48,364 nt of DNA, taken from Polyangia bacterium (lineage in GTDB: Bacteria > Myxococcota_A > Polyangia > Palsa-1104 > JAEUJZ01). Below are positions 26,563 through 30,397 of this stretch, piece by piece; within the stretch, counting starts at the first letter, position 1, and every line of letters starts with the position of its first letter. Both the position numbers and the translations under genes were made by a program. The stretch lies in NCBI GenBank assembly GCA_044228505.1, contig JBGAUT010000014.1, forward strand, positions 78,725 through 127,088. Direction: 5' to 3'. The notes beneath the pieces were generated by a model. The model had not been told where the DNA came from, made no database searches, and saw only the letters and a program-made list of their open reading frames with translations.

Positions 26563-29500
26563 TTACGGCTTCCACGCAGGCCGCTTGCTCTGCGGATCGG
26601 CCTTCTTCACCGAATCGACAATGCCCCCCGAGCCGCCACCATTGCCGGAGGCCGGGGCCTTGGCTCCCCCAGCTCCCGCCGCGGCTTGCTTTACGCCACC
26701 ACCACCACCGCCGCCACCGCCAGCACCTCCAGCCGCCGCTCCGCTCTTCCCGTCGAGGATGCCTCCATCAGTTTTCGTTGCACCTGATGCCTTGGCCTGT
26801 CCCGTTGGCACGTTGCCCCCAGGCTGGCCAGAATTCTTGGCTTCTCCCCCTGATTTGGTCCCCGAATTGACCCCTCGCTTGGACGCATCAGCGGCAGGAC
26901 TCTCCAACTTGCCATCGGCCGTTTTGCCTTCCGGAGCTTTCAATCCATCCCCGCCCTTGCCTTCTGGGGCCTTCACTCCATCCCCGCCCTTGCCTTCTGG
27001 GGCCTTCACTCCATCCCCGCCCTTGCCTTCTGGGGCCTTCACTCCATCCCCGGCTGGCATGGCTCCGTCTTTGCCTTCCGCTCCCGGCGCTCCGTCCTTT
27101 TTCCCGTCGGCTCCCGGGATCGCTCCGTCCTTGCCTTCCGCTCCCTTGGCTCCGCCCTTCGCTTCCCCGGCTCCGCCCTTCGCTTCCCCGGCTCCGCCCC
27201 TTGCATCCCCGGTGCCGTCCCTTGCATCCCCGGCTCCGCCCCTTGCATCCCCGGTGCCGTCCCTTGCATCCCCGGTGCCGTCCCTTGCATCCCCAGCTCC
27301 GTCCTTCGCGTCCCCAGCTCCGCCCTTCGCGTCCCCGGCTCCGCCCTTGCCGTCCCCGGCGTCCTTCTTTTCGTCGCCGGCCTTGGCCCCATCTTTCTTA
27401 GCATCGGCCTGCGCGCCGTCCTTTTTGGCGTCGCCGCCACCCGCCTGCTTCTCTTGCTGCTTCTTTTCCACCGCGTCAGGGTTGGTCGAGTCCACCTGCG
27501 CCTGCTTGGCGTTCTTTTCGGCCTCGCCGGCTTCCTTCTGAGCCTTGGCCGCCTGACCCGCCGCATCGGCCGCTTTCTGCTCGACCTGGGCCGCCGCTTG
27601 CTCGGCACCTGCGGAATCGCCGCTCGCGATCTTGTCGGTCGCTTTGGCGGCATCCTCGACGGCCTTGAGCGACGACTTCACCGCATCCATCGCCGTGTCA
27701 CATGCTTTGGCCGCCTGTTTGCGCGCATTTTCGTCAAAGACACCGACGGCGCTTTTGGCAGCGACCATCACCCCCTGCCCCGCGGCCATCGCCGACTTGC
27801 CGGCATTTACCGCGCTCTGGGCCAGGCTGCTGGCCGCCGAGATTCCCGTCTGCACCGAGGCCGAGGTCGTACAGCTCGCCAACTCCACCAGCTTGCTCGC
27901 ACCCGCCATCGCCGTCTTGAACTCGCTCGCCGCCGTCGCCATGGTTTGATTGGCTTCGCCGAGCAGTTTTTCCGAGGCGGACTTCACCAGCCCTGCGACC
28001 TCTTTGGGCGCATCCACCGTACTTTGAAACGCCGCCGTTGCCTGCTCGACCACTCCCCCGGCCTGACCGATCACCCCATCGACCGTTTCCTTCACCGACA
28101 GCACATGCGCCTTCATCTTTTCGAAGTGGCCGCGCATGGTTTCCCAGCTCTGTTTGCCCGTCTCGAACAGCTTCTTCGCCTTGACCACCACGTCCATCGC
28201 GCCGCTGACGTCGAGGTTCTTGGCCTTTTCGACGCCATCTTTGACGCTCTGCACCAAATCCTCGACAGACTTCTTCAGCTCGTCGATGCACTTTTGAGCA
28301 TCTTTGATGATCGCGTCGATCTCTTTCTTGATTTCGTCGACGTGCTTTTTGACCTTGTCCTTGGTTTCGTTGAAGAGCTTGACCGATGACTCGCCGACGC
28401 TTTTCCACTGATCGACGCGCTGAGTAATGGCCGTCGTCACATCGGAACCAAGCTGAGACACCGTGCCCTTGACGCTGCCCGCAAAGTTGCGCGCCGCATC
28501 GAGCGTCCGTTGCCCTGCCGAGGCGATCTTGCTCACCTCGGCCTGCACTTCCTGACCGACCGCTCCCAGCTCGCCCCACGACAGCCCCGCCAGCTTGCCC
28601 TGAAGCTCCTTGATCTTTTGCAGCTTGGTCCGGGCGTCGTCCTGCTGCGACATCGCATCGCCCACCGTCTTGTGCAGATCGTCCACGGACGGACCGGGCG
28701 TATCCATCTGATGGGCCGCCTCACTGACCTTGCCCATCGTATCGAGCGTGATCCCGCGTAGCTCGTTCGAGGTGCTCTCGATCTCCGAGACAATGCTGCG
28801 CGCCGTATCCACCGCTTGCTTGGCCGCAGCGCTCGCGGTCACCGTCACAATCGCCGAGAGCTTCTGGGCAGTGGCCTGCGTCGCGGTAGAGATCTCATTG
28901 ACCCCCGCGTCGACCGCCCCACGAATCTCGGTCGCCCCGGCCTTGGCTTGATTGACCACCCCAACGACATCTTCGCGAGTCGCCGCCACCGCTTCTTTGG
29001 CTGCCGATTGCGCCGCCTCCAAGTGCCTTTTCAAGGCGCTGGTCAGCCCATCGGCTGCAACCGACAGTCCACCAATGAGGCGCTTGATGGCATCGAAGCA
29101 CACCTCGCCTTCATGGACCGCCGCCATCGCCGCTTTCTGCGCATCCCCGGCCCGACTCGCCGCGAGCTGAAAGTCTCGCTTGGCCGCCGCTTGCGCCGCT
29201 TCACGCGCCGCCGCGATCGCCTGCTTGGCATGCTCAAACGCGGCAGGACCATTGGTGCTGAGCACGTCAAAGCAGGTGCTCACATCATTAATGACCTTTT
29301 CGACCTTGGACTTGATGTCCTCAAAGGCCGCCATCGCCATCTCGACGAGCTGACGAAGCCTCGCTTCGATGTTAGCCAGCGCCGCTTTGGCCTTGTCGAT
29401 GAGCGGTCCTACGACGCCAGCAACGGTCGACTTCACCTTGTCGATGGCGTTTACGATCGTGTCCTTATACGAAGCGATCGCGCCGGTGATCTTGCTGACC

Positions 29501-29823
29501 GCGCCTTGGATCTTGCCGATGACGCCAAGTGCTCCTGATGCTGCGGTCTTTTGCACCGACTTCTGGGCGTTGTCGACGACCTGTTTGACCTTCTCAGCCG
29601 CTTGCTTGACGTCGGCTTTGGCCTTCTCGACGGCAGACTTGGCGTCCGACAGCGCCGACTTGGCGTCGGCAGCCACTTTGCCCTGCACTTTTTCGACACC
29701 AGCCGTCACGCTCTGAACCGTCTTGAGTCCCTCGACTGCGACTTTGTTCAGTTCATCGATGGTCTTTTTGCTGACCTTGTCTACGTCAGACCGTACCGAG
29801 GCAAGCTGCTGATTTACGTCCAT
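26563..29823 (-). CDS. Giant Ala/Lys/Gln-rich predicted all-helical protein (~1086 aa; apolipoprotein/phasin-like amphipathic repeats). It has internal tandem low-complexity repeats (GDARDGT/GDAKGGA heptads; KAPEGKGGDGV 11-mers) and a Gly-rich C-terminus.
   Basis: A continuous minus-strand ORF. The start was moved from the GTG at 29904 to the ATG at 29821-29823 (SD ACGGGGAAC upstream), because the GTG start would overlap the upstream 173-aa gene. Repeats are obvious in both DNA and protein. Opposite-strand ORFs in the track are repeat shadows. Confidence 0.6.
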   Translation of the reverse strand: MDVNQQLASVRSDVDKVSKKTIDELNKVAVEGLKTVQSVTAGVEKVQGKVAADAKSALSDAKSAVEKAKADVKQAAEKVKQVVDNAQKSVQKTAASGALGVIGKIQGAVSKITGAIASYKDTIVNAIDKVKSTVAGVVGPLIDKAKAALANIEARLRQLVEMAMAAFEDIKSKVEKVINDVSTCFDVLSTNGPAAFEHAKQAIAAAREAAQAAAKRDFQLAASRAGDAQKAAMAAVHEGEVCFDAIKRLIGGLSVAADGLTSALKRHLEAAQSAAKEAVAATREDVVGVVNQAKAGATEIRGAVDAGVNEISTATQATAQKLSAIVTVTASAAAKQAVDTARSIVSEIESTSNELRGITLDTMGKVSEAAHQMDTPGPSVDDLHKTVGDAMSQQDDARTKLQKIKELQGKLAGLSWGELGAVGQEVQAEVSKIASAGQRTLDAARNFAGSVKGTVSQLGSDVTTAITQRVDQWKSVGESSVKLFNETKDKVKKHVDEIKKEIDAIIKDAQKCIDELKKSVEDLVQSVKDGVEKAKNLDVSGAMDVVVKAKKLFETGKQSWETMRGHFEKMKAHVLSVKETVDGVIGQAGGVVEQATAAFQSTVDAPKEVAGLVKSASEKLLGEANQTMATAASEFKTAMAGASKLVELASCTTSASVQTGISAASSLAQSAVNAGKSAMAAGQGVMVAAKSAVGVFDENARKQAAKACDTAMDAVKSSLKAVEDAAKATDKIASGDSAGAEQAAAQVEQKAADAAGQAAKAQKEAGEAEKNAKQAQVDSTNPDAVEKKQQEKQAGGGDAKKDGAQADAKKDGAKAGDEKKDAGDGKGGAGDAKGGAGDAKDGAGDARDGTGDARDGTGDARGGAGDARDGTGDARGGAGEAKGGAGEAKGGAKGAEGKDGAIPGADGKKDGAPGAEGKDGAMPAGDGVKAPEGKGGDGVKAPEGKGGDGVKAPEGKGGDGLKAPEGKTADGKLESPAADASKRGVNSGTKSGGEAKNSGQPGGNVPTGQAKASGATKTDGGILDGKSGAAAGGAGGGGGGGGGVKQAAAGAGGAKAPASGNGGGSGGIVDSVKKADPQSKRPAWKP
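26924..27056 (-). repeat. Four tandem copies (three near-perfect) of a 33-nt unit ccttctggggccttcactccatccccgcccttg inside the giant A/K-rich gene (encodes KAPEGKGGDGV)
   Basis: Seen directly in the sequence. Confidence 0.85.
27149..27360 (-). repeat. About 10 tandem 21-nt repeats (ggctccgcccttcgcttcccc and variants) inside the giant A/K-rich gene (encode GDARDGT/GDAKGGA/GEAKGGA heptads)
   Basis: Seen directly in the sequence. Confidence 0.85.
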
Positions 29824-29875
29824 CGCGGTTCCCCGTTTCTCAAGCGATTTCTCGACCCCAAATGGAAGCCATTCC

Positions 29876-30397
29876 CTACGTGCTTGGCGCGCTGCTCGAT
29901 CCACTCGACGAAGAGGTCGGCGGAGCCTGCGCTTCGGCCTCGATGATCAGCGCGGAAACGGCTTTCACTACGTCGCCCAGTCCACCAAGCAGGTTCTCGG
30001 CGATCCCGACGGAGTGTTCGGCACCATCTTTGGCAGCGGAGTACGCATCCTTGACGTCGGCATGCGCATCCTTGGCGTCTTCCGCCGCACGAATCGCAAA
30101 CTCCTTCGCATCGGAAACAGCCCGAACAATGTCACGGGCAGTCGATTGGGCTGAGGCCAAGCTGCCTCTCGCCGAGTCCACGCTCCCCGCGATCGCGTCG
30201 TTACGAACCTGCTCTAGCTCGACGAGCAGCTTGCGAACTGCACCAATCTGAACTTCGGCCAGTGCGATCGCCTTCTCTGCGTTCACCACGTCCACACGAA
30301 CATTTGGTCGCTTCAGGACGAACGTGTACTTGTTGCCCGCCGTGAGCCCGGACAACCGCTGCCCAAGGGTTCGGATCTCGCGCTTTACATCAGCCAT
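29876..30397 (-). CDS. Hypothetical Ala/Lys-rich helical protein (173 aa); first gene of the T6SS-containing transcription unit
   Basis: ORF from the track. Its composition resembles the downstream giant protein. It is preceded by a 214-bp divergent intergenic region. Confidence 0.45.
   Translation of the reverse strand: MADVKREIRTLGQRLSGLTAGNKYTFVLKRPNVRVDVVNAEKAIALAEVQIGAVRKLLVELEQVRNDAIAGSVDSARGSLASAQSTARDIVRAVSDAKEFAIRAAEDAKDAHADVKDAYSAAKDGAEHSVGIAENLLGGLGDVVKAVSALIIEAEAQAPPTSSSSGSSSAPST

Follow-up and report, generated by a model that had tools for sequence, protein, structure and literature searches.

In a 48,364-nucleotide (nt) stretch of a Polyangia bacterium genome (GenBank assembly GCA_044228505.1, contig JBGAUT010000014.1; hereafter the window), three adjacent minus-strand genes lie ahead of the structural gene cluster of a type VI secretion system (T6SS). 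They encode a small protein of 173 amino acids (aa), a giant of 1086 aa and a carrier protein of 383 aa, and on balance we judge it probable that this triad is a cargo module for a contractile-injection spike, here neighboring a T6SS, in which a giant helical protein is the cargo, a small protein the adaptor and a β-sandwich protein the platform. A preliminary description of the same DNA had located the open reading frames (ORFs) of the first two proteins correctly; it had also placed them directly ahead of tssJ, where in fact the carrier gene and a 168-nt conserved intergenic region intervene. At the junction, the carrier start codon stands 1 nt past the TAA stop of the giant gene. The ATG listed in Table 1 is the most plausible start of the giant; the mechanical GTG start at 29904 would give 1113 aa and overlap the small gene. 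Synonymous and nonsynonymous codon changes relative to the related locus L009 number 98:28 in the giant and 35:8 in the small protein, and this third-position, synonymous excess among relatives indicates that the two genes are real and evolve under purifying selection. The giant gene is also covered by long ORFs in other frames and on the opposite strand (26585-29538; for example 26585-27541, plus strand, 318 aa, Pro/Ala-rich); they are non-genes, by-products of the GC-rich repeats, one of which was wrongly called by the gene caller in locus L014.

By exact-sequence look-ups, one species-genome scan and one metagenome scan, we collected 44 related loci from metagenomes and metagenome-assembled genomes (MAGs), using 20 homologues of the small protein (57 to 96% identity) as the handle. 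A word-index search with the giant was swamped by low-complexity words (1 and 2 matches), and the giant orthologues were taken from the fetched loci. All loci, designated here by L numbers, were mapped by tblastn with the window proteins and divided into three clades according to small-protein identity. The small-giant-carrier triad is conserved in all three. In the near clade (at least 73% identical), divergent OmpA-like and PEGA genes precede small, giant and carrier, and tssJ, tssK, tssL, a TPR gene and a periplasmic-binding protein gene come after them; T6SS genes follow the module in all six distinct loci with downstream sequence (the window, L001, L002/L022, L009/L019, L012 and L027), so the two genes noted first do recur in orthologous T6SS clusters. 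The middle clade (54 to 68% identical) has livHM, a divergent PEGA gene and often a PKMT-like methyltransferase gene ahead of small, giant and carrier. Non-T6SS genes follow the module in both of its loci with downstream sequence: L008 has a Cu oxidase plus an outer-membrane factor on the opposite strand, and L014 a radical-SAM gene. The distant clade (35 to 40% identical) shows a permuted order of gene X, carrier, small and giant with gaps of 17 to 33 nt, and no T6SS core gene matched in any of its seven loci (five with the full 10 kb on both sides, two with partial flanks), where genes such as kinases, a porin and a phosphatase are the neighbors. Altogether, the module occurs without a T6SS core gene within 10 kb in all nine middle- and distant-clade loci with enough flank. 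These stand-alone loci demonstrate that the triad is a self-contained, mobile unit that lies beside the T6SS in one lineage only, and the earlier statement that a T6SS operon opens with these genes is not supported.

The carrier is composed of an N-terminal domain (aa 1-120, 26202-26561), a linker and CarboxypepD_reg/prealbumin-like β-sandwich repeats. Pfam matched CarboxypepD_reg in three stretches at 64.6 bits (cutoff 32.3) and the SpaA prealbumin-like fold at 26.8 bits (cutoff 23.1), which gives the carrier the transthyretin (TTR)/prealbumin-like β-sandwich extension of T6SS loading-platform modules. By comparing the clades, we found that the domain in front of this platform is exchanged. 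The distant-clade carriers have the Pfam PAAR_motif at their N terminus (L034, 63.7 bits; L035, 55.7; L040, 65.9; L042, 43.6; cutoff 27), and the NCBIfam model T6SS_PAAR_dom hit a PAAR-clade carrier with an E value of 1.7e-12 at 47 bits, below its cutoff of 124. The window carrier, in which Pfam found no PAAR, aligns by BLASTP with the PAAR-bearing L034 protein (31% identity, E 2e-29) over aa 127-378 and not at the N terminus. Its own type of N-terminal domain, about 95 to 120 aa long, shows conservation limited to the near and middle clades and matched no family and no PDB entry. PAAR domains are known solely as tips of contractile-injection spikes. Among the three roles proposed in the preliminary description (structural accessory, secreted substrate or membrane-coating factor), the PAAR in homologues of the third gene therefore favors a secreted substrate for the giant and the small protein. 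Within the carrier N-domain, a 75-bp tandem duplication (26356-26499, 1.9 copies, 84% matches) corresponds to a 25-aa repeat (DVELLLRxFSxDxTAxQTLR...); since the 90%-identity carrier cluster holds 383-aa and 358-aa versions on several contigs each, this duplication is naturally polymorphic. Directly preceding the PAAR carrier is gene X (about 300 to 370 aa, Pro-rich C terminus; L034 7793-8749, L035 7625-8737, L040 7635-8708 and other distant-clade loci), which is missing from L042 and from the window. It has no Pfam, NCBIfam or PHROG family and no transmembrane segment, and its product may serve as adaptor, as immunity protein or as another cargo.

The small protein is rich in Ala, Val and Ser, with 5.8% Lys and 2.9% Gln; the Ala/Lys-rich composition earlier ascribed to both proteins is inaccurate for this one. 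Strong amphipathic-helix character was found in aa 1-785 of the giant. An N-terminal motif region (aa 1-37) is followed by a three-helix bundle (aa 38-157), for which AlphaFold2 gave a predicted local distance difference test (pLDDT) score of about 90, against 41 to 53 for residues 1-37. Residues 16-36 (SGLTAGNxYTFVLKRPNVRVD) are invariant among proteins just 54 to 57% identical overall, and an invariant segment that is modeled at low confidence alone suggests folding upon partner binding. In L042, the small protein and the giant form a single 1104-aa ORF; this Rosetta-stone fusion implies that the two act as one unit and speaks against an immunity role for the small protein. Neither protein exceeded the threshold of any family in Pfam, NCBIfam, PHROGs or PADLOC, T6SS families of Pfam and NCBIfam included, in agreement with the earlier view that they are not canonical T6SS parts, and neither matched a Pfam T6SS effector marker domain such as MIX, FIX, Rhs or DUF4150/PAAR-like (RIX has no model in the libraries used). 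A fold search with the small protein returned just generic or designed three-helix bundles (best E 0.013), and was set aside. Profile searches against the PDB yielded nothing but noise (keratin, designed bundles or FecR) for the small protein, the giant and the carrier N-domain. None of the three module proteins has a signal peptide or a transmembrane segment.

The giant contains 19% A, 13% G, 11% K, 9% V and 8% D. The hydrophobicity spectrum of its aa 1-785 peaks at 3.6 residues with a power of 287, against 25 ± 12 in 200 shuffles, and a 3.60-residue peak is found in each 100-residue block of this part. The hydrophobic moment exceeds 0.3 in 66% of 18-residue windows versus 12% after shuffling, and is similar to that of an apoA-I sequence used as a yardstick; the autocorrelation peaks at 7, 11, 18, 22, 25 and onward are plain helix harmonics. 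No transmembrane segment was detected (maximum 19-residue Kyte-Doolittle mean 1.31). Conserved Cys and Trp motifs occur along the helical body (CFDAIKR, GLSWGELG, VDQWKSVGE, NLDVSGAMDVVVK and SWETMRGHF), which ends in NPDAVEKK, and they point to a specific fold. AlphaFold2, given a thin alignment, modeled the giant as entirely helical, with low confidence (pLDDT 55). HMMER, run over 1.84 billion representative proteins, retrieved just 15 relatives of the helical part, mostly fragments; the closest genomes are uncultured Myxococcales MAGs, and source records name these proteins "hypothetical protein" at best.

Behind the helical body, the giant continues in a near-neutral, disordered 306-aa tail of G, A, K, D and P. 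Tandem Repeats Finder (TRF) reported a 21-bp unit in 10.1 copies (27148-27360, 85% matches), encoding GDA(K/R)xGx 7-mers at aa 823-892 (27148-27357), and a 33-bp unit in 3.9 copies (26924-27052, 95% matches), encoding GDGVKAPEGKG 11-mers at aa 925-967 (26923-27051). The DNA repeats, formerly called perfect, are thus near-perfect. The heptad/11-mer array of the preliminary description was right about tandem units of 7 and 11 aa; these are Gly/Pro-rich and disordered, not coiled-coil heptads or hendecads. Likewise, its poly-Gly tail exists as a run of nine Gly that does not end the protein, as 43 residues follow up to the terminal KRPAWKP. The forecast of a length-variable repeat region was borne out: in three relatives at least 95% identical, with helical parts at about 96%, the tails consist of different amplified units and measure 306, 320 and 249 aa, a variation to which short-read assembly collapse could contribute. 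On the MAG contig of L012 (10001-13750), the small, giant and carrier genes are frameshifted and internally deleted and the flanking T6SS genes are intact, so that either the repeats collapsed in assembly or this copy is decaying. Apart from one or two motifs of the type G-[IL]-[LVF]-[DE]-x-[VLI]-K per tail in all clades, the tails cannot be aligned. The terminal motif, [KR]-x-P-[AP]-W-[KR]-P, is found in each complete near- or middle-clade giant (the window, L027, L009, L001, L008 and L014) and is missing from all PAAR-clade giants; the loci that have it are exactly those with a non-PAAR carrier N-domain and a carrier gene abutting the stop codon of the giant. Immediately upstream of the small gene, the middle clade has a methyltransferase gene with PKMT winged-helix and MethyTransf_Reg domains (L007 5566-7110, L008 6360-7925, L013 4966-6549, L030 6-515). 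Because the tail is Lys-rich, it could be the substrate of such a PKMT-type enzyme, of which the window has no homologue.

In the 168-nt gap between the module and tssJ, the blocks CTGAACGCAAACAATCC, GCTTCCATAC, TATAAT and GGGGAG are invariant in five loci, and the sequence around them diverges and includes large insertions. The 17-nt block CTGAACGCAAACAATCC occurs once in the window, about 60 nt ahead of the conserved TATAAT, and is a possible site for a regulator of the T6SS structural genes. No terminator-like site was found on the minus strand of this region, no sigma-54 promoter before tssJ was matched by eye, and a generic promoter scan did not pick up the TATAAT block. Nevertheless, the conservation of the TATAAT-containing block suggests that the structural genes have a promoter of their own upstream of tssJ, from which they probably start, and the conserved blocks also agree with a separate ribosome-binding site. 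The region upstream of the small gene holds different conserved elements in a six-locus alignment, including an inverted repeat with 9-nt arms 35 nt apart, CCGACAAGG (30533-30541) and CCTTGTCGG (30489-30497), which may be an operator or an RNA stem. On the earlier question of a separate transcription unit, then, no terminator was found and a separate promoter is suggested; we read the conserved elements as marking two regulatory regions, so that the module probably forms a transcription unit of its own, and read-through into tssJ is possible.

The T6SS structural cluster begins with the lipoprotein in the TssJ position, whose maximum 19-residue Kyte-Doolittle mean of 2.26 lies at the signal peptide and which has no Pfam match, SciN included. 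It is followed by tssK, tssL, the TPR gene, the periplasmic-binding protein gene, tssM, tssA, tssB, tssC, hcp, tssE, tssF, tssG and, as the last gene, vgrG (6595-8631), so that the cluster extends to position 6595. Twelve neighboring genes match T6SS families, Pfam identifying tssK, L, M, A, B, C, E, F and G, hcp and vgrG. We found no tssH/clpV in the cluster (5382-25242) or elsewhere in the window, and no PAAR in any of the six frames of the whole window. The periplasmic-binding protein, of Leu/Ile/Val type, and the TPR protein are inserted between tssL and tssM. Directly downstream of vgrG, a position usual for effector and adaptor genes, is a MORN-repeat protein gene (403 aa, 5382-6593, minus strand), followed by a gene for a 332-aa protein without a family (4061-5059, minus strand). 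On the other side of the module, the OmpA-family protein (31265-33664, plus strand), whose gene is kept beside the PEGA gene in the near clade, has thrombospondin type-3 repeats and a low-complexity tail of about 200 aa rich in Pro, Ala and Val, PAVPTPPAAPAVP, which accounts for a local GC peak of 0.68 at 33001-34000. The PEGA gene, encoding an envelope protein, is the conserved divergent neighbor of the module in the near and middle clades.

Table 1. Coordinates in the window of the module, its parts and the flanking regions
Feature	Position	Strand	Basis or remark
Small protein, 173 aa	29876-30397	-	ORF
Giant, 1086 aa	ATG 29823 to stop 26563	-	ORF
Giant, helical part, aa 1-785	27469-29823	-	Periodicity, hydrophobicity, orthologue alignments
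Giant, tail, aa 786-1086, disordered polyampholyte	26566-27468	-	TRF, orthologue comparison
Tail motif GGILDGK	26746-26766	-	
Gly9 run, aa 1035-1043	26695-26721	-	
Tail motif GGIVDSVKK	26602-26628	-	
Terminal motif KRPAWKP	26566-26586	-	
Carrier, third module gene, 383 aa	25410-26561	-	Pfam CarboxypepD_reg, BLASTP
Module-tssJ intergenic region	25243-25409	-	Five-locus alignment
TssJ-position lipoprotein, 155 aa, lipobox LFGC	24775-25242	-	First gene of T6SS structural cluster
PEGA gene-small gene divergent intergenic region	30398-30566		Six-locus alignment

A working scheme for the spike-cargo module can be drawn from these features. The prealbumin/TTR-like repeats of the carrier would be the loading platform; in the distant relatives this platform, fused to PAAR, would cap the VgrG spike, and in the window and the rest of the near and middle clades the N-domain of about 95 to 120 aa in the place of PAAR would dock it on the spike in a different way. 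The small protein would act as adaptor or co-cargo, its strand-like N-terminal motif docking on the β-sandwich platform and its three-helix bundle packing against the N terminus of the giant. The giant would be the delivered cargo. Its amphipathic body of about 785 residues may bind lipid or membrane surfaces in the target, a step that we hold loosely and favor because the amphipathic helix is the only clear physical property of the protein. After the body would come a fast-evolving disordered spacer with short conserved motifs, and the terminal KRPAWKP may bind the carrier N-domain, given its co-occurrence with the non-PAAR form. Carrier, small protein and giant would then be fired together with the spike. 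Secretion by the T6SS, the binding partners and the membrane activity are what we infer; the direct adjoining of the module to tssJKL in all six near-clade loci speaks for this scheme, and the lack of signal peptides and transmembrane segments in the triad fits a Sec-independent route. Effector loading through TTR-like extensions of PAAR and VgrG is established, and RIX was shown experimentally to be able to substitute for PAAR or VgrG at the N terminus before such a platform (PMC10435454). Up to 35 PAAR genes are present in Myxococcales genomes (PMC8651086). We would go further only tentatively, to an extended proposal that seems to us possible but rather doubtful: the carrier N-domain might be a new Myxococcales-specific T6SS delivery domain replacing PAAR in the manner of RIX, and the giant a new kind of T6SS cargo, enzyme-less, immunity-less and lipid- or membrane-binding, on a hypervariable tether with a C-terminal docking peptide.

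Several points weigh against the spike-cargo module. Family searches found no toxin or enzyme domain in the giant, and there is no conserved immunity-like gene beside the module, whose flanks vary (kinase, radical SAM, Cu oxidase, porin, β-helix); the latter would be compatible with a target other than bacteria, or with a role that is not toxic. Since the window carrier has no PAAR, its link to a spike is through platform homology only, and no vgrG or hcp lies within 10 kb of the orphan loci. The giant, folded, helical and of about 110 kDa, is large for a cargo, and its AlphaFold2 model is of low confidence, as given above. All of the evidence is sequence and metagenomic context. In addition, PAAR domains are also used by extracellular contractile injection systems (eCIS), and the module could accordingly carry cargo of such a phage-tail-like system and not of a T6SS. 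The capping of eCIS spikes by PAAR proteins (PMC8651086) and the orphan loci without nearby T6SS genes would agree with that idea. We rate it as quite improbable, as the T6SS is the only injection system found beside the module at any locus, the partial NCBIfam match is to the T6SS PAAR model, and no eCIS genes were seen in any scanned 10-kb flank; for the orphan loci, an eCIS may still be the delivering machine. A structural or regulatory accessory at the head of the T6SS structural operon (a scaffold, a cap, or a tube-lumen or length-related component) would suit the position immediately upstream of tssJ in the six near-clade loci, the missing terminator before tssJ, the lack of both toxin domain and immunity gene and a long helical giant that superficially resembles a tape measure; it is nevertheless unlikely in our estimation, because the module lives without T6SS core genes in nine of nine middle- and distant-clade loci, a conserved promoter-like block separates it from tssJ, and a tail that varies so strongly between near-identical relatives would be unusual in a part of the machine. 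Matches to tape measures count against this accessory, too, for they are compositional. The native giant matched six tape-measure PHROG families (167, 305, 1272, 4070 and 5493 among them) and one "tail protein" family, with E from 6e-8 to 7.5e-4; on phrog_305 the reversed giant did better than the native one (5e-14 versus 3e-7), and the shuffled giant and the less Ala/Lys-rich L034 orthologue matched no tape-measure family. The giant is not among tail tube, chaperone or baseplate genes, and the genes flanking it are not tail genes; we therefore rejected tape-measure homology.

The preliminary description had likened the two proteins to apolipoproteins or phasins, and a cellular protein independent of the T6SS, be it an apolipoprotein-, phasin- or late embryogenesis abundant (LEA)-like coat or stress protein or a cytoskeletal scaffold, would make the T6SS position a matter of lineage-specific synteny. 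The amphipathic signal comparable to the apoA-I yardstick is in line with such a protein, as are the many loci where the module is alone, the conserved divergent PEGA envelope-protein gene and a match of the L042 fusion to ApoLp-III at 38.4 bits (cutoff 36.3). For the window giant, the resemblance did not survive inspection: it reached 25.4 bits against a cutoff of 90 for Pfam Apolipoprotein and had no phasin match, staying below threshold for every phasin, LEA and apolipoprotein family, and matches of this kind are compositional, as the control with the reversed sequence showed, so that membership was rejected. Together with the PAAR fused to the module's own carrier in four loci, and with a helical period of 3.6 instead of the 3.67 of 11/22-mer apolipoprotein repeats, this makes a cellular protein also rather unlikely. 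The giant's model has UmbC (8w20_A) as its top Foldseek match (E 2e-6), and the umbrella-type (UmbABC) polymorphic toxin particle, with giant helical scaffold, small bridge and β-sandwich lectin, is likewise a three-protein set with a large helical protein and a β-rich partner. UmbC is defined by a TAT (twin-arginine translocation) signal at the N terminus, eight ALF repeats and a C-terminal toxin domain (PMC11062931). The giant has none of these (its N terminus, MDVNQQLASV, contains no twin arginine), and the match has a template modeling (TM) score of only 0.24 on a model of low pLDDT. A PDB-sequence profile search did not find UmbC even at E up to 10. In Umb, moreover, the small bridge (UmbB) is the protein with the β-sandwich, and a trypsin fold belongs to the lectin protein; neither holds here. 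Relatedness to UmbC was rejected on these grounds, and an umbrella-type particle appears highly improbable.

T6SS cargo effectors have no universal signal, and their delivery domains and cargo types are therefore discovered family by family. The module families described here are uncharacterized and so far restricted to uncultured Myxococcales; the logic of platform and cargo is already known. What they offer is a natural domain swap on one platform, with PAAR in some loci and a domain of no known family in others, which makes the latter a candidate for a new secretion domain beyond the vibrios. The proposed cargo has neither an immunity partner nor an enzymatic or pore-forming domain, and one may ask what an amphipathic helical protein of 110 kDa would do once inside a target cell. 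Its tail is a clean case of a disordered tether that rapidly grows and shrinks in a proposed secreted protein. For annotation, the lesson is that a position at the head of a T6SS cluster need not mean membership of the structural operon.

Among known systems, tape measure proteins share with the giant a very long Ala/Lys/Gly-rich helical sequence, genetic linkage to a spike component and weak hidden Markov model matches (PHROG families 167, 305, 1272, 4070 and 5493, E 6e-8 to 2e-4); unlike them, the giant is also found in loci without tail genes and away from tube and baseplate genes. UmbC (PDB 8w20) is similarly a large all-helical protein made with small and β-rich partners; the giant differs in lacking the TAT signal, ALF repeats, toxin domain and any sequence similarity, and the structural match is weak. 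Exchangeable apolipoproteins and apolipophorin III (PF01442, PF07464) are comparable to the giant in their long amphipathic helix, similar mean hydrophobic moment, Ala/Lys/Glu/Gln richness and lack of a transmembrane segment, whereas the giant, a bacterial cytoplasmic product encoded beside a PAAR-type carrier, has no proline-punctuated 11/22-mer repeats, has the different period given above, and contains conserved Cys and Trp motifs. Extension domains of PAAR proteins were reportedly described by Shneider et al. in 2013. Compared with the TTR loading-platform modules (Kanarek et al. 2023, PMC10435454), the present module has no immunity gene or recognizable toxin domain, has a cargo in two parts, small and giant, that are fused once, uses several CarboxypepD_reg-type repeats in place of a single TTR, and replaces PAAR by a domain other than RIX, which is confined to Vibrionaceae and Moritellaceae. 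The two nevertheless have much in common: a prealbumin/TTR-like platform encoded beside its cargo, an exchangeable N-terminal delivery domain that is PAAR in some loci and an unrelated domain in others, a platform-adjoining gene whose product has a conserved N terminus apparently unstructured alone, and an occurrence both in T6SS clusters and as orphan islands.

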